DNA of 64,000 bases, from contig CAVVOP010000022.1 of the NCBI GenBank assembly GCA_963749915.1, positions 480,001-544,000 of the forward strand, in the 5' to 3' direction. Made by a program: the position numbers. Shown piece by piece: positions 21,001-33,000 of the stretch (positions are counted from its first letter, which is position 1; each line of letters starts with the position of its first letter). The stretch comes from an uncultured cyanobacterium (GTDB lineage: Bacteria; Cyanobacteriota; Cyanobacteriia; Cyanobacteriales; Cyanobacteriaceae).

Positions 21001-24000
21001 TAAAGGAATTAAAGCGGAAGATTTAAGTTGAACAAAACGATTATAACTGACCAAATTAGGAAAATCTTGAAAATGATAAACCTGAATATGATTTTGATAA
21101 TAGTGTTTAAAGTTTCGATAACTAGAATGATGAAAATAAATAATAATAGTCATAATTTCACTCAAGGATAATCGACTATTTTTGATTCTTTTTTTCTGTT
21201 TAGATGATAAAATTTGACGATTAAAAGATGGTTCAAAAATTAAACAGAAATCATCTACATCATAGAAAAGTGTTTCTAATTCCATAAAAATTAATTTTTA
21301 AAAAATAACATATTGATTATGAAATTAATTTAAAAAAAAAAGGAGATATTAGCAATGAAATTTAATAAATATTCAGAAAAATTAACTTATTAATCTGGGT
21401 AGAACTTTTAATACATTAAGAATTGTAAAATAGCGAAAAATAGTATAAACCCAAAACTCATATAAGTTAAGAGTTTGAGACTATTTTCTTATATCGAACT
21501 CAGGTATATTAGGAACAGCAACGGCATTATGCTTCGGGACTATGTTGAAACGTAAAAATACTTTGAATAAAGAAGCTAAATAATATCGATACAAGTACAA
21601 AAATGATAAATAAACTTGAATGACGGCTACTACAGTCGTCTTTTTTTATGTCTCAAAACCGATCGCATTTGAGACTAATATGAATGCAATTAGGTATTGC
21701 TTATGGGGTTAATTGCTTTTAAAGTGAATTATTATTCATTAATATTGGATTAATATTTATCTAGAAACATAAGTTTAAAGTCAGTTGCATTAACAATATC
21801 AATACCCTCAAAAGAATTTAAAACTAGCAAGTCTAAATCACCAGTAATAATAAAATTAACTGGAATAGATAAAGCAGCTTCTAAAACTATTTTATCCTTT
21901 AAATCTCTTAATTCAGAAATCTCTAATATTGATTTTGGTTGGCATAATTTAGTAATTAACTTGACACCATTAACTAACTCTTGAGTTGAATAATTTAGTT
22001 GTTTTAATCTCTTTTGTAACTTTTCTTTAGCTAAGGTTTCTTCTAGCTCTTTTAATAAAGAATTAGAAATATAAATAGTTGCTGAATTATTCTCTGCTAA
22101 CTGAATTATCTGACGAGGAATACCACCCCATAATAGACCTGAAATCCAGATATTCGTATCAAGTAATAGTTTCACTACCCAGCTCTATCTTCCCGAACTT
22201 CTTTCACCAAAGAGACAATTTCTTCTGTGGACAATTGCTCCTTATCTTCTCCTAAATCATCTATTTTTTGCCATAACTGAGTCAAAGTATTTTCTCTTTT
22301 GGTAAACTGCTTAATTAACTGATATACTTCTTCTAATTTTTCTTCGGGAATATTATCAATTTCAGCTTTAATTAAATCTGCTATTGTCATTATATATTTC
22401 CTTTTGCTGATCTAATAATAATGGCTCTTCTACAGTGAGTATGACAAATTAAGTACAAAAACAAAGTCACAAAATGGTAAAATTTTACACAAGTGAAGCG
22501 ATCAGTTCTGATAAATAGATGCTACCTCGCTTTTAAACTATTAGGAAAATTAATCAAATTTTTAAATAAAACAATAATTTTTATCTTATGCCTTCTAATT
22601 CCTCTCTTCATCTTATCACTAAACTTATTAATTTTGAGGGAGTCAAAGCTACTGATTACCATTTTATTACTGACAACGAAATTTTAATTATATTATCGAA
22701 TCAAACATCAGAGTCAACTTGCCCTTATTGTCATACTATTACTAAAAAAATACACCAAGATCATTATTATCGAATTAGAGATATACCTTTGAGTGGTTAT
22801 GATGTGTTTTTAAATATTAACCGCCGTCAATTTCGATGTATTCATTGCCAGAAAATTTTTAGTGAAGAGTTAAATTTTGTCAAAAAAAGAAGGACTTATA
22901 CAACTAGATTGGCAGAGAAAGTAGTTAAGGAAGTGCTAGAAGGTGATATTTTAAACACTGCCAAAAGAAATGGAATAACTCCCAGAGAAATAGAAACCTT
23001 ATTAAAAGAAAAATCAGAGGATTTATTAGAAGAAAAACCAAAGGATTTAAAAAGATTAGGAATTGATGAAATAACTCAGTTAAAAGGAGGAAAGAATTAC
23101 GCCGCAGTGTTAGTGGATTTAGACAAAAAAAACCGATAGCAATTTTAGAAAACAGAAGTAAAGAGACAATCAGAAAATACCTGATAAGTTTAGGTTCTGA
23201 GGTATTAAATCAAATTGAAGAAGTCAGTATAGATTTGTGGATAGGATATAAAACTTTGGCATTGGAGTTAATGCCAAATGCAAACGTAGTAGCAGATAGA
23301 TTTCATGTAATGAAACAAATAAATGAAGAATTAGATCTGATGCGAAAAAAGCAAAAAAGGGCAGCTTCAGAAATCAAAAATGAAGTAGAAAAAGAGAAAT
23401 TAGAAGAAGTCAAAAAAGTAGCACCAGAGTTAATAATAATGTACGCAGAAAAAGAGGCATGGAGGGATATATTTGAAAGTGAAATAACAGCGGAAGAAGC
23501 ATTAGATAAAATAGCGGAATGGATGAAATCAGCACAGAAATATTTTCCCAAAAGTTGTCAAACAATAAGAAGATGGCTAGATGAAATATTAGGCTATTTT
23601 GACAACAGAACAAGTCAAGGTATAGTAGAAGGAATTAATCAAAAAATTAAGCTGATTAAGAGAAGAGCTTATGGCATGACAAATTTTGATAATTTTAGGC
23701 GAAGAATCTTATTAAATTGGTCTGTATCTTAAAAATGTATCATAGCTACTGTAGAAGAACCATAATTTTTAACTTTATTCAGCATCCAGTAGAATCATTC
23801 TGACACCTGACACCTGACACCTGACACCTGACACCTGACACCTGACTTCTAGTCTCACCAAAATCTCACAAATCAAAACTGATTGCTATACTTACTTATA
23901 ATATTCAGCTTGGGTAGCAAATAGGTGGGCATAAGTACCCTGAAGTTTCATAAGTTCCTCATGAGTTCCACTCTCACTAATTGTGCCATTTTCCAGAACA

Positions 24001-30000: not shown

Positions 30001-33000
30001 TACCCCAGATTATCAAACAAAGTTGGCGGCTACTAAGCTCTAAAAAGAAAAACCAAGCAGATATTCAAAGCAGTCTTATTTCCGAGGAGTTTGCCCGACG
30101 GGTAAATTTAGAAGAACGCTTAGAAACTCTTTCCATAAATCTGGGAAAATATAAAGTGTTAAAAACAGCTAGAGAAGTTCATCAAAACTCCTTGGATGTT
30201 CCTAATCTCACCGTCGCCCTTGATAGATACGAAAGAGTTGCCGCATTCTATTCCATTGAACCGCGTCATCCCCTTCTCGATAAAAGATTGGTCGAGTTCT
30301 GTCTATCCCTTCCTGGTGAGCAAAAAGTTCGCCAAGGATGGACAAAATCCATTCTCAGAAGGGCAATGGTCGGGAAAGTGCCGGATTCCGTACGCTGGCG
30401 ACACGATTGTGATAATGTACAGCCTGCTTTTACAAAAAGTATGTTACGTCATCAACAAGAATATCTCCCAGATTGTATTGCTGAATGTGCTACTGAGTTA
30501 AAGGATTATGTTAATGTAAAAGAGCTTGAAAAACAGTACTTTCAGTGTTACGCCACAGAAACTGTTAACGAAGACGCAGGATGGAAAGTTTGGCCTACCG
30601 TCATCTTGGCTACGTGGCTTCGTGACCACAGGTAAAATTACTTAGTGAGTTATTGACATATACATAATTAAATAATATGATTACGGTCGTCAACGTATTC
30701 AAAAAAATTTTCTTCCAATGAAAAACCAAAATCTCAAAAAATATCACCCTCCTAAACTGGAAATTTATGGTAATGTTTCTAAACTGACTCAGGGTGGTAG
30801 TTCAGGTACCCCGGAAACAGCCATGAATCCCATAGGGGCACGACCATAAATTTAGCTCAAATGCAATCATAGTCTTTAATCTGGTCAAAACTGTTAGGGC
30901 GTTTTTATCTTCGAAAGGAAATACTACTGTTGATGAACATAGACTTTCTCGGCCTGTTTCTGAACTGGTAAGTTTTTGTTGATAAATCACATTACCCTAA
31001 CGACCAGATCTTAATAATAAATATTATTTTGTCTAAGTTTGTTCATAATTCTCAATCTATCAAAATTATGTATAGTATTTTTGAATATGGAGGAATGATC
31101 AAAGATTCCGTACGGATGTCTGCTTACATTGAGACATTGCGTAGGACAGTAACACCAGAATCTATCGTTTTAGAGATTGGTACAGGCACAGGCATTTTTG
31201 CTCTTATTGCTTGTCAGTTAGGAGCGAGGAAGGTTTATGCCATTGAACCTAATAATGCGGCCATTCGGGTTGCTCAAGATATTGCCCGCGTCAATGGTTA
31301 TGGGGATAAAATTGAGTTCATTCAGAATCTATCAACTGAAATAAACCTGCCTGAAAAAGTTAGCATAATACTCTCTGATCTAAGAGGTACTCTGCCACTA
31401 TTTCAAAATCATATTCCCGTTATTGTTGATGCCAGAAAAAGATTTTTAAGTCCGAATGGTGTACTTATTCCCCAACAAGATACTCTGTGGGCATGTGTGG
31501 TAGAGGCACCAGAATTTTATCGAGATAAATATAGTTCTCCTTGGGATGATAAACCCTATGGTTTCGAGATGAAATCAGCACGGCGATTCACTACCAATAC
31601 TTGGCATAGGTATAAAGTAAAACCGGAAGAACTTTTTGTCGAATCTCAGTGCTGGTCAACTCTGGACTATAACACCAGAGAAGATCCCGATGTCAAAGGG
31701 GAACTAAATTGGACCGTAGCACGCACTGGAGTAGCCCATGGTTTAAGCGTTTGGTTTGATGCCACCTTAGCTGAAGGGATTGGTTTTTCCAATGCCCCCG
31801 ATCAAATCGGAAGCGTTCATGGTGAAGCTTTTTTCCCTTTTTCCTTTCCCGTAAATCTTTCCGAGGGGGATACTGTTTCTGTGACTTTACGAGCTGACTT
31901 AGTGGGGAATGATTATATCTGGCGTTGGCATACCCAGATATTTGCTCAAGACAATCCTGCTCAAGTTAAAACCAACTTTAAACAATCTACCTTTTTTGGT
32001 CAACCTCTATCCCTAAAACAATTACGCAAACTGGCGGAGGGTTACGAACCGAAACTCAATTCAGAGGGGAAAATAGTACAATTGACTTTGCAACTAATGA
32101 GTGAAAATAAAACTTTAGGAGATATTGCCAAGCAACTTACCCATGAATTACCACAACGCTTTTCTTCTCCACAAGAAGCTCTTACTTATGTGGGAAAAAT
32201 TTCTCAGAAATATAGTAAATAAGATAAATAAGTTCAAATCAATTCAAAAAAAATCCAGGTGTGAATTTTCCGTTGATGAGAAAATACAGATTGCCGTTTT
32301 AGGGATTGGTGATTAGGAATTGGGACTGAGGAATCTCCCATTGCCCAATCACCATTTTTTTCAAGCACGGGAGGATTGATCTGCTCAATGTTAGACTAAA
32401 AGACAGTTATTAGATAATTTTAATCAATGTTGGAGACAAAAGAACAAAACTCTCAATCTTATTTCACAAAATTGGGCCTAACCAATAGATTTGGGCCAGT
32501 TCCCGAAACAACAATCGAGAAAAACCATCCTAGCCCATCAGCTTTAAATGAAAATTCTCTCAAAGTTTTAAGTTGGAATATCGCTAAAAATAATCGTCGT
32601 CAAAGCTGGACTAGGGATTTTCTCGCCATTGTCGAGCAATACCAGCCAGATAAAATCTTTTTGCAGGAAGTTCGTTTATGTTCCAGAGTTAGAGACATTC
32701 CTGAATTGAGAAATATGGGTTGGAGTTTTGCACCTAACTTTATCGATAGTTTTGACTATACCTATTCGGGAATTTTAATCGCTACTAAGGCAGAACTCCT
32801 GAATAGCAGATCTTTGATTACTAAACATTATGAACCAGTTACTAACACTCCTAAAGTTTCTCTATTTGCGGAATATTTTTTATCAGATAGCCTCGGAAGT
32901 TTACTAGCTGTAAATACTCATTTGATTAATTTTGTTGAACTAAGCAAGTTTAAAGCCCAATTACAAGAAATAGAGTTAATACTCTCCGGGCATCAGGGAG

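Follow-up and report, generated by a model that had tools for sequence, protein, structure and literature searches.

A PRMT-fold methyltransferase in a cyanobacterial lasso-peptide cluster: a candidate for N-methylation of a basic side chain near the core C-terminus

What might an enzyme with the fold of protein arginine methyltransferases (PRMTs) be doing in a lasso-peptide gene cluster? The question arises from a locus of an uncultured member of the Cyanobacteriaceae, contained in a 64,000-nucleotide stretch of contig CAVVOP010000022.1 (positions 480,001 to 544,000), here called the window and numbered from its first nucleotide. The favored reading, to which we would give about an even chance (roughly 0.5), is that the methyltransferase (MT) N-methylates a basic side chain near the C-terminus of the core peptide, in a cluster that also provides for kinase tailoring. 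The features of the locus are:

22588..23732, + strand: ISL3-family transposase at the cluster's edge, split into ORFs of 183 and 165 aa
23892..25703, − strand: ABC exporter (permease + ATPase), 603 aa (ABC_tran E 3.9e-34; ABC_membrane E 1.1e-11)
25771..26970, + strand: NTP_transf_5 nucleotidyltransferase-fold protein, 399 aa (PF14907 E 2.7e-61)
27033..27305, + strand: B1, PqqD-like leader-recognition protein, 90 aa (PqqD E 3.9e-18)
27211..27729, + strand: B2 leader peptidase, transglutaminase-like Cys protease (NF033537 lasso_biosyn_B2, 84.9 bits, cut-off 33)
27742..28719, + strand: HPr-kinase-like lasso tailoring kinase, 325 aa (Hpr_kinase_C E 3.6e-07; HprK_rel_A E 4.9e-12)
28716..30635, + strand: lasso cyclase, Asn-synthetase-like, 639 aa (NF033535 lass_lactam_cya, 688.6 bits, cut-off 525)
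30653..30681, + strand: promoter-like site TTGACA-17-TATGAT, immediately 5' of the precursor gene (11/12 consensus positions)
30718..30849, + strand: precursor peptide, 43 aa (NF033521 lasso leader, 25 bits, cut-off 19)
31029..32222, + strand: PRMT-fold SAM-dependent MT (PrmA 42 bits and PRMT_C 36.8 bits, both over cut-off)

Positions 23892–32222 constitute a complete lasso-peptide cluster, and profile searches bear out the eight ORFs and the family assignments given to them in the first-pass annotation. The kinase scores slightly short of the cut-off for Hpr_kinase_C (30.3 against 33.3 bits), and B1 matches lasso_PqqD_Bac with E 4.5e-17, under that profile's cut-off. The B2 ORF, which also matches Transglut_core3 (E 5.9e-22), is 172 aa long with its real start probably further downstream, the NF033537 match beginning at residue 42, while the cyclase shows both Asn_synthase (E 5e-38) and GATase_7 (E 9.9e-27) domains. 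The ABC exporter, a putative pump for lasso-peptide export or immunity, is 40–58% identical to the ABC genes found 3' of the MT in related clusters, and the NTP_transf_5 gene recurs 3' of the ABC gene there. Only two promoter-like sites with an 11/12 match occur within 23500–32600, as a matter of consensus matching only. The GC content is about 0.40 in the lasso cluster and about 0.30 upstream of it.

The precursor consists of the leader MKNQNLKKYHPPKLEIYGNVSKLTQ and the core GGSSGTPETAMNPIGARP, a division identical to that made earlier, with the leader ending in ...KLTQ. Its leader motif, Y-x-x-P-x-L-x-x-Y-G-x-[IV]-x-x-L-T-x, is common to more than 60 precursors beside related kinases, and this is the only precursor in its genome with such a leader. 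A ring closed by a Gly1-Glu8 isopeptide bond is predicted. The core ends in A-R-P, with neither a Lys nor a T/S following a basic residue.

Much of this machinery has a parallel in the paeninodin and pseudomycoidin systems (PadeK/PsmK, PsmN), which, in the available portions of the reports, likewise combine a split B1/B2, a cyclase, an ABC exporter, an HPrK-like kinase with an H-K-D-D motif and a nucleotidyltransferase-fold gene. In the window kinase H126, K147, D164 and D165 match the His-Lys-Asp-Asp motif that lasso kinases are described as carrying (excerpts of PMC9266682); the first three are invariant among 25 aligned kinases, and D165 is present in at least 90%. PsmN is described, in the accessible part of its report, as an uncharacterized NTP transferase required for hexosylation of phospho-pseudomycoidin, so that tailoring by a kinase together with an NTP transferase is documented for that peptide (PMC6993621). 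The kinase and NTP_transf_5 genes of the window match this known phospho(glyco) tailoring, and by analogy we infer that the NTP_transf_5 protein is a PsmN-like modifier of the phosphorylated residue. The paeninodin and pseudomycoidin kinases, as far as these sources describe them, phosphorylate a C-terminal Ser, whereas the window peptide ends in Pro and the T/S of its typical relatives lies 1–6 residues from the end, after a Lys. The same partial accounts describe no methyltransferase of the window's kind in those clusters. Another, distinct group of kinase clusters in cyanobacteria has cores ending in Y-x-S and lacks the MT.

The ORF of the MT is 397 aa from a TTG start; the likely start is the ATG at 31068, giving 384 aa, the length also of the database entry. 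A phmmer sequence search against solved structures retrieves PRMTs (E 1.6e-25), and Foldseek places the AF2 model (pLDDT 90.3, residues 1–14 disordered, helices at 345–395) with PRMT2/6/1/8 (E ~1e-27, TM 0.68–0.87). As modeled, the enzyme has the fold of type I PRMTs (PRMT1/2/3/6/8, CARM1), i.e., a Rossmann SAM domain and a beta-barrel (PRMT_C), with an extra C-terminal three-helix bundle that those enzymes lack. Motif I, V-L-[DE]-I-G-T-G-T-G, is retained, but the arginine-binding double-E loop is altered: S-E-W-M-G...Y-E-S of PRMTs aligns with S-D-L-R-G...F-Q-N-H of the window MT, the first Glu being replaced by Asp, the second unconserved, and a conserved Arg and His gained. In its place the Cyanobacteriales orthologues (42–59% identical) and most relatives in Acidobacteriota, Desulfobacterales, Chromatiaceae and Binatia keep S-D-[LIM]-R-G-x(8)-H, with deviations in Heliobacteriaceae (C-D-L-R-G) and in a stand-alone copy from Acidobacteria (S-D-I-G-G). 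The earlier label "arginine methyltransferase-like" thus holds for the fold but fails as a description of the likely chemistry, because the double-E and THW loops are missing and the residue that goes with the MT in the putative substrates is Lys rather than Arg.

Full-length MT orthologues occur in 50 of the 401 Cyanobacteriales genomes sampled, this one included, and in none of the six same-genus genomes searched, which reproduces in substance the previous counts (about 50 of 400; none in six congeners). They are also found in Acidobacteriota, Desulfobacterales, Heliobacteriaceae, Chromatiaceae and Binatia. Among the 49 other cyanobacterial genomes the kinase gene adjoins the MT in 26 and a lasso precursor in 25, usually in the order B1-B2-cyclase-precursor-kinase-MT-ABC-NTP5, an arrangement seen also in Blastocatellia, Pyrinomonadaceae, Desulfobacterales and Heliobacteriaceae. 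In 23 of the 49 the MT lies away from lasso genes and would therefore have to act in trans; six of these unlinked MTs share a conserved location next to a DUF3172 gene, and 20 of the 23 genomes have a cyclase-precursor-kinase locus elsewhere. Hence, the module of MT, HPrK-like kinase and lasso precursor proposed in the first-pass annotation does recur, but it is neither limited to Cyanobacteriales nor always linked. A related MT subfamily (30–34% identity, loop S-V-F-T-G...E-E-D) accompanies Met-rich cores with tails free of K, R, S and T, and therefore the pairing of MT and kinase need not mean a K-T target. Precursors were detected by regular expression, so the set may be incomplete, and the tree comes from the quick version of the tree search.

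A pointer to the acceptor comes from the core tails, compared in 60 genomes by scanning the 10 C-terminal residues for [KR][ST]. MT-bearing genomes have K-[ST] in 45 cases, R-[ST] in 3 and neither in 5, whereas related kinase-bearing clusters of genomes without the MT have K in none, R-[ST] in 6 and neither in 1 (Fisher p = 3e-6, genomes being counted without kinship correction). Three or more distinct lineages supply the MT-less cases—genera g63/g76, G366 in g110 and G210 in g41—and MT-bearing relatives of the latter two (two members of g110, five of g41) carry K. When the MT-less genomes were rechecked with a profile, only Rossmann-only matches of at most 41 bits, or domains within ORFs of 1248 and 2802 aa, were recovered. 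Of 23 metagenome contigs examined, seven yielded a precursor (four K, one R, two neither). In typical MT-cluster cores the K-[TS] pair sits 1–6 residues from the C-terminal end, and the basic residue followed by T/S that had been noted there is indeed seen in the cores of MT genomes. That this residue accepts the methyl group gains independent support from K going with the MT and R with its absence, although the acceptor is still a predicted one. Going by these sequences, a Lys beside the phospho-acceptor would most likely be the methylated residue, because K-[ST] goes with the MT and R-[ST] with its absence; a strict Lys-only reading fails because of the three MT-bearing genomes with R-[ST] and the five without any such pair.

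An improbable alternative is that the MT O-methylates an acidic group, either the C-terminal carboxylate, the group methylated in lassomycin, or the phosphate installed by the kinase, which would become a methyl phosphate ester. The often abutting kinase and MT genes of those 26 genomes would suit it, as would the S-D-x-R-G loop, whose loss of the second Glu and gain of an invariant Arg fit an anionic group; methylation of the C-terminal carboxyl is well established among lasso peptides (parts of PMC9266682), and the cores of the window and of Chromatiaceae end in R-P with no T/S next to the basic residue. However, O-methylation leaves unexplained why Lys is swapped for Arg in exactly the MT-less lineages, and the Asp kept at the first double-E position is what one would expect for a cationic acceptor. 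Moreover, the known lasso O-methyltransferases belong, as partly accessible accounts have it, to other families (mitomycin-O-MT-like StspM; PIMT homologues), none of which the window MT matches significantly.

About as improbable is that the window MT is a passenger, an NF033535-type lasso core set having recombined with an MT/ABC/NTP5 module so that GGSSGTPETAMNPIGARP offers no acceptor. The window cluster is an uncommon hybrid, with a cyclase of another lineage that is only ~40% identical to those of typical MT clusters; on NF033535 the latter score ~370 bits and the window cyclase 688. Given this cyclase and a core ending in R-P, the K-T rule is therefore not directly transferable to the window peptide, which lacks K-[TS]. 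Among 40 genomes with an NF033535-type cyclase over cut-off, the window's alone pairs it with the MT in the loci fetched. The cluster was not found in the six same-genus genomes, it is flanked by the broken ISL3 transposase, whose first ORF matches Zn_ribbon_ISL3 and HTH_Tnp_ISL3 and whose second matches DDE_Tnp_ISL3 (E 1.3e-39), and a 70–74% identical copy in a same-family genome has decayed by deletion. Against this, the window MT has an unbroken ORF and keeps every motif of its family, and a PRMT fold could accept Arg. A second conserved substrate of the R-P type is also suggested by an MT-bearing Chromatiaceae cluster, whose cyclase is 42% identical to the window's over its full length and whose core starts with GGSG, has Glu8 and ends in T-K-R-P.

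Least probable is a methylase of cellular (e.g., ribosomal or membrane) proteins brought near lasso genes by shared regulation or hitch-hiking: the unlinked orthologues, several in conserved synteny with DUF3172 or amid housekeeping genes such as CoaBC/BioD, FabD and ThrRS, and the database names PrmA or PRMT1 speak for it, but 46 of the 50 MT genomes, the window's included, have the typical kinase and a lasso precursor (26 adjacent, 20 elsewhere), the gene order is repeated in five other phyla, the K/R state of the peptide tracks the MT even when unlinked, and the PrmA match is limited to the Rossmann part (profile positions 152–232 of 296).

Under N-methylation of the peptide, the locus would yield a lasso peptide of 18 residues. 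B1 and B2 would cut off the leader after ...L-T-Q, the cyclase would link Gly1 to the side chain of Glu8, and the HPrK-like kinase would phosphorylate a Ser/Thr, probably together with the NTP_transf_5 protein, with the phosphate perhaps decorated further. The PRMT-fold MT would N-methylate the basic side chain close to the C-terminus, and the ABC pump would export the finished peptide. In typical members the target would be the Lys of K-[TS], immediately N-terminal to the presumed phospho-acceptor; in the window peptide the sole candidate acceptor would be Arg17 (core ...G-A-R-P). We infer that the peptide is a substrate of the MT and that a Lys or Arg nitrogen is the acceptor, and likewise the order of steps, the ring and all sites in the window peptide. 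As a guess, the conserved Asp117 may grip the amine and Arg119 the neighboring phosphate or carboxylate, and methyl-Lys with phospho(glyco)-Thr may form a bulky lock beneath the ring.

A parallel might be struck with other lasso tailoring enzymes. The peptidyl-arginine deiminase of citrulassin, the gene for which lies outside its lasso cluster, also acts on a basic side chain, but it deiminates rather than methylates and has an unrelated fold. It was supplied separately, according to a portion of the source (PMC9266682). The O-methyltransferases StspM/LasF and TceM/LihM are, in the available text, SAM-dependent tailoring enzymes encoded within their clusters (PMC9266682; PMC13352647); they differ from the window MT in family and in acceptor, which is described there as the C-terminal carboxylate for the lassomycin-type StspM/LasF and a ring Asp side chain, leading to aspartimide, for the PIMT-type TceM/LihM. 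No paper on the tailoring proposed here was found in the literature searched. The association of this MT with K-T lasso cores in many bacteria points to a methylation of Lys (or Arg) undescribed for lasso peptides.

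The first-pass annotation had placed a lasso-peptide gene cluster at 23892-32222, and its eight ORFs were recovered at the same coordinates, with families assigned by profile searches:

23892-25703, minus strand: ABC exporter (ABC_tran, E 3.9e-34)
25771-26970, plus strand: NTP_transf_5 protein, hereafter NTP5 (PF14907, E 2.7e-61)
27033-27305, plus strand: B1 (PqqD, E 3.9e-18; 66 bits, cut-off 23.4)
27211-27729, plus strand: B2 leader peptidase (NF033537, 84.9 bits, cut-off 33)
27742-28719, plus strand: HPr-kinase-like kinase (Hpr_kinase_C, E 3.6e-07; HprK_rel_A, E 4.9e-12)
28716-30635, plus strand: lasso cyclase, Asn-synthetase-like (NF033535, 688.6 bits, cut-off 525)
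30718-30849, plus strand: precursor, 43 aa (NF033521, 25 bits, cut-off 19)
31029-32222, plus strand: PRMT-fold SAM-dependent methyltransferase, hereafter MT (PrmA, 42 bits; PRMT_C, 36.8 bits, cut-off 27)

Profile searches and the sequence itself reveal an isopeptide cyclase, a B2 peptidase with a PqqD-like RRE protein (B1) and a short precursor, by which the locus is a lasso peptide biosynthetic gene cluster with a threaded lariat as its predicted product. The precursor comprises the leader MKNQNLKKYHPPKLEIYGNVSKLTQ, ending K-L-T-Q, and the core GGSSGTPETAMNPIGARP (G1...E8); the core is taken to start at Gly1 because Thr sits at leader position -2, and Glu8 is its only suitable ring acid. A promoter-like site, 37 bases 5' of the precursor, agrees with the consensus at 11 of 12 positions, a match in sequence only. 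Translation of MT probably starts at the ATG at 31068, since the database protein has 384 residues, orthologue alignments begin at 13-14 and residues 1-14 of the structural model are disordered. GC content is about 0.40 in the cluster versus about 0.30 in the DNA upstream, and the upstream edge adjoins an ISL3 transposase broken into two ORFs (22588-23732). A genome-wide search found this one lasso cluster and one such precursor only, and the cluster was not found in the six same-genus genomes searched. As to the surroundings, a 216-aa ORF (20635-21285, minus strand) lies further upstream than the transposase, and two small adjacent minus-strand ORFs at 21750-22390 look toxin-antitoxin-like by eye. 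Downstream of MT, an endonuclease/exonuclease/phosphatase-family gene (32427-33257; NF003842, 257.8 bits), with no recurrence in related clusters, is probably outside this one, and a 480-aa ORF (33285-34727) appears cardiolipin-synthase/PLD-like by eye.

The core lasso machinery and the kinase/NTP-transferase layer are of already known kinds. Like the kinases of the paeninodin/pseudomycoidin type, that of the window is HPrK-like with a His-Lys-Asp-Asp catalytic motif, which the available portion of a 2022 review gives as the motif of lasso-tailoring kinases (PMC9266682); when 25 kinases of these clusters are aligned, H126, K147 and D164 never vary and D165 is found in at least 90%. For pseudomycoidin, the accessible part of the report describes phosphorylation by PsmK of the Ser at the C-terminus and a requirement for PsmN, an uncharacterised NTP-transferase-like protein, in adding a hexose to the phosphate (PMC6993621). 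The window's NTP5 is likened to PsmN by description only. Whereas paeninodin and pseudomycoidin offer a C-terminal Ser as phospho-acceptor, the window core ends in Pro, and in its typical relatives a Thr or Ser precedes the end by 1-6 residues. Of the 401 sampled genomes of the Cyanobacteriales, 118 have a member of the kinase family, far above the MT count. A further class of cyanobacterial cyclase-precursor-kinase loci (L128-L135, e.g., L131:3187 and L130:3209) has cores ending Y-x-S (...I-Y-V-S, ...Q-Y-A-S, ...V-Y-T-S); these loci share the C-terminal Ser with paeninodin, and no MT adjoins them.

MT itself is homologous to type I PRMTs (E 1.6e-25, phmmer against solved structures), and its AF2 model, built from 53 sequences (pLDDT 90.3), retrieves PRMT2/6/1/8 and CARM1 in Foldseek at E ~1e-27 and target-side TM values reaching 0.87. 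It shares with type I PRMTs the Rossmann SAM domain and the PRMT beta-barrel but bears, at 345-395 of the model, a three-helix bundle missing from PRMTs. This C-terminal bundle, conceivably a leader-binding domain, is missing from about seven orthologues. In PRMTs, the two Glu of the double-E loop hold the substrate guanidinium. MT lacks such a loop: the type I sequence S-E-W-M-G-Y-F-L-L-Y-E-S-M-L aligns with S-D-L-R-G-T-L-P-L-F-Q-N-H-I in the window MT. The family alignment of orthologues 42-59% identical to it has Q, G, K, S or E at the second-Glu position and a common motif S-D-[LIM]-R-G-x-[LIV]-P-x-x-x-x-H, which is kept in most relatives from Acidobacteriota, Desulfobacterales, Chromatiaceae and Binatia, with the variants C-D-L-R-G in a Heliobacteriaceae copy and S-D-I-G-G in a stand-alone Acidobacteria copy. 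The T-H-W signature of PRMTs is replaced as well, by S-V-H in the window MT and by x-x-Y-G in the family consensus. Loss of the second Glu, the guanidinium partner in PRMTs, fits a changed acceptor, and the Asp kept in the loop fits a cationic one. An identity as PrmA is not borne out: MT matches Pfam PrmA at profile positions 152-232 of 296 only, leaving the N-terminal L11-binding part unmatched, and reaches 30 bits on NCBIfam prmA against a cut-off of 183. At E<=1e-20, the family comprises 2902 proteins, with database names such as 'L11 methyltransferase' or 'PRMT1'. A complex prediction (MT alignment, 43-aa precursor and SAM) scored 0.04 against a mark of 0.32 and is weighed neither way.

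A full-length MT orthologue is present in 50 of the 401 genomes, the window genome included and one copy being split over two contigs. Up to 20 kb around each MT was fetched, and the window proteins were mapped onto these loci. The kinase gene adjoins MT in 26 of the 49 other genomes, with a precursor in 25 of these 26, and the usual order of the linked loci is B1-B2-cyclase-precursor-kinase-MT-ABC-NTP5. In the other 23 genomes, MT lies away from lasso genes, a few of these loci being cut by contig ends: six unlinked copies adjoin a DUF3172 gene (four of them also a gene for a 642-aa Rieske/amine-oxidase protein), and others stand between CoaBC and BioD, or have FabD or ThrRS before them and just ABC and NTP5 behind. 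A (B1)-cyclase-precursor-kinase locus stands elsewhere in the genome in 20 of these 23; G357 (82% complete), G002 and G229 yielded none. MT accompanies the lasso peptide even where the two are unlinked. In a quick tree, all 24 lasso-linked MTs, that of the window included, share a clade of 98% SH-aLRT with six copies whose kinase/lasso neighbours are missing or incomplete, and a basal, paraphyletic set is formed by the unlinked MTs of family f29. That the f29 copies form a paralogous clade of other function was considered and dropped because the f29 genomes still carry the kinase-precursor locus with K-T cores. The DUF3172 synteny belongs to one cyanobacterial family (L060, L061, L064, L068, L072, L075). 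A distant MT-like gene of 27-29% identity, within a 477-aa ORF (L105:5565-6305, G037:C1), adjoins the kinase of a K-T-type locus whose core ends V-V-K-T-G; the close MT orthologue of that genome is on another contig with ABC and NTP5.

Outside the order, the same architecture, with MTs 45-55% identical, recurs in Blastocatellia, Pyrinomonadaceae, two Desulfobacterales, Heliobacteriaceae, Chromatiaceae and Binatia. These relatives and those on metagenome contigs were found with a search profile (A1), and scans of the contigs with the MT protein alone confirmed no relative. The cyclase profile NF033535, which across the 401 genomes also matches ordinary asparagine synthetases (235 of 401 at E<=1e-30), served to locate candidate cyclases only, not to count lasso clusters.

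In the cores that accompany typical kinases, a [KR]-[ST] pair falls among the last 10 residues, e.g., ...P-N-K-T-N, ...F-K-S-G-G, ...R-R-K-T-S and ...D-K-T-A. Cores were tabulated for 60 genomes: 46 cyanobacterial with MT, seven records from other phyla with MT, and seven cyanobacterial without MT, each of the last with a typical kinase locus. Excluded were G104 (precursor not found), G254, the eight loci of a second MT subfamily and all kinase loci of other classes.

Pair in the last 10 core residues, by presence of MT (number of genomes)
MT present: K-[ST] 45, R-[ST] 3, neither 5
MT absent: K-[ST] 0, R-[ST] 6, neither 1

Lys versus Arg by MT presence gives p = 3e-6 in Fisher's exact test, a value that overstates the evidence because the tabulated genomes are kin. 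More telling than the pooled test are the contrasts within groups. In one genus (g110), the genome without MT (G366) has ...P-N-R-T-A and two with MT (G249, G338) have ...P-N-K-T-E; in another (g41), the genome without MT (G210), where ABC stands directly 3' of the kinase, has cores with P-R-T-N/G-R-S-S, and five MT-bearing genomes have K-T or K-S. Two genera without MT (g63 and g76) show P-N-R-T-x; of the seven other tabulated genera of their family, all with MT, six have N-K-T-x and the seventh (g91) P-N-R-T-L. A renewed search with profile A1 of the genomes lacking MT returned only Rossmann-only matches of at most 41 bits and methyltransferase domains inside 1248- and 2802-aa ORFs. Exceptions are the two genomes of g91 and G093, the latter with R-T where its congener G113 has K-T. 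The MT-bearing genomes without the pair in the last 10 residues are G048, G306 (K-T further in), the window genome (A-R-P), and the Chromatiaceae (T-K-R-P) and Binatia (M-S-K) records. Among metagenome contigs, a precursor was found in seven of the 23 examined (four K, one R, two neither). A glycosylation-like N-x-T sequon as the conserved feature was set aside because the residue preceding K/R is not always Asn.

A survey of ring acids was made on the L031-L127 cores (e.g., L031:8225, L090:3185): with Thr fixed at -2, the first acid at or beyond core position 7 lies at position 10 in 32 of 64 cores, at position 9 in 23 and at position 11 in two; G or N usually comes next (D-G-A-G, D-N-x). Either cleavage of these leaders falls one residue beyond the site expected from the T(-2) rule, or the rings are 10-membered. 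Lasso prediction tools take ring size to be 7-9 (PMC12214591).

By comparison of sequences, the presence of MT goes with Lys before the presumed phospho-acceptor, and the lineages without MT go with Arg there; this comparison points to Lys as acceptor in most putative substrates. The simplest account of the K/R pattern would be that MT N-methylates the Lys preceding the presumed phospho-acceptor and that Arg can replace the methyl-lysine. A conserved Arg of MT could hold the neighbouring phosphate, and such a contact would, we infer, also account for the lasting association of the kinase and MT genes. That MT instead O-methylates the phosphate or the C-terminus of the peptide seems rather unlikely; it would leave the K/R pattern unexplained. 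Lysine N-methylation can be tentatively extended, with a probability of roughly 0.3 for the whole: a PRMT-fold enzyme whose double-E loop has become Asp...Arg...His would be a peptide lysine N-methyltransferase reading Lys-phosphoThr/Ser near the lasso C-terminus, the methyl-lysine and phospho(glyco)-threonine would act as an enzyme-made steric lock for unusually large rings (9, possibly 10 residues), and lineages losing MT would compensate by Lys to Arg.

The window cluster is atypical among MT clusters. Its cyclase scores 688 bits on NF033535 versus about 370 for typical MT-cluster cyclases, at about 40% identity, and its kinase aligns with the others at 21-27% identity. The core ends A-R-P, with Arg17 as the sole candidate basic acceptor and Ser3, Ser4, Thr6 or Thr9 as candidate phospho-acceptors. 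The one similar case is the Chromatiaceae locus, with a cyclase 42% identical to that of the window over its full length and a core, GGSGRETENKGKDFQPTKRP, that starts G-G-S, has Glu8 and ends R-P. C-terminal R-P cores may therefore make up another class of substrate, in which Arg17 would be the candidate acceptor of the window core. A genome of the same family (G318; L143, C86:1200-9200) holds a copy of the window cluster with 70-74% identity in nucleotides and, in amino acids, 65% for the kinase, 75% for the cyclase and 69% for ABC. In this copy, a deletion has joined residue 273 of the cyclase to residue 180 of ABC, with loss of the precursor and any MT; ABC and NTP5 run in one direction in the copy, and ABC is inverted in the window.

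A second MT subfamily, 30-34% identical to the window MT and with the loop S-V-F-T-G-N-F-L-L-E-E-D, occurs in 8 of the 401 genomes. It is paired with kinase, ABC and NTP5 (L079-L086, e.g., L083:11601-12485; L168, L169, L177, L257), in loci with up to four tandem precursors whose Met-rich cores (e.g., A-M-A-A-G-G-Y-A-D-M-M-Q-G-N-M-L-M-M) have tails free of K, R, S and T. In other phyla, the endings of relatives are M-P-C-L, M-A-C-L or M-M-R-P.

According to the available portions of two reviews, the known lasso methyltransferases are StspM/LasF, which make a C-terminal methyl ester, and the PIMT type, which methylates a ring Asp towards aspartimide (PMC9266682, PMC13352647). These belong to other families and use other acceptors than that proposed for MT, which in Pfam and NCBIfam is without significant homology to the O-methyltransferase/PCMT families: its sole match is a marginal one of 18 bits to the NCBIfam protein-L-isoaspartate O-methyltransferase (cut-off 188), with none to Pfam PCMT. 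Side-chain N-methylation is not among the lasso modifications in the accessible text of the 2022 (PMC9266682) and June 2026 (PMC13352647) reviews. A literature search returned no relevant link between lasso peptides and arginine methyltransferase, PRMT or methyllysine; genome-mining surveys and subscription journals, outside its scope, may list the co-occurrence. MT is predicted to represent a new class of tailoring enzyme within lasso clusters.

There is demand for lasso peptides as antibiotics and as stable scaffolds, and every further tailoring enzyme extends the range that can be made. The contrast of Lys with MT and Arg without it names the residue to mutate and the mass shifts to expect. 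If true, the proposed reaction would be the first among lasso peptides to N-methylate a side chain. The PRMT fold is best known from eukaryotic arginine methylation; in bacteria it would have changed its substrate, giving rise to a Lys-specific offshoot of the PRMT family across at least six phyla, and the homologues now annotated as L11 or arginine methyltransferases form a large family to explore.
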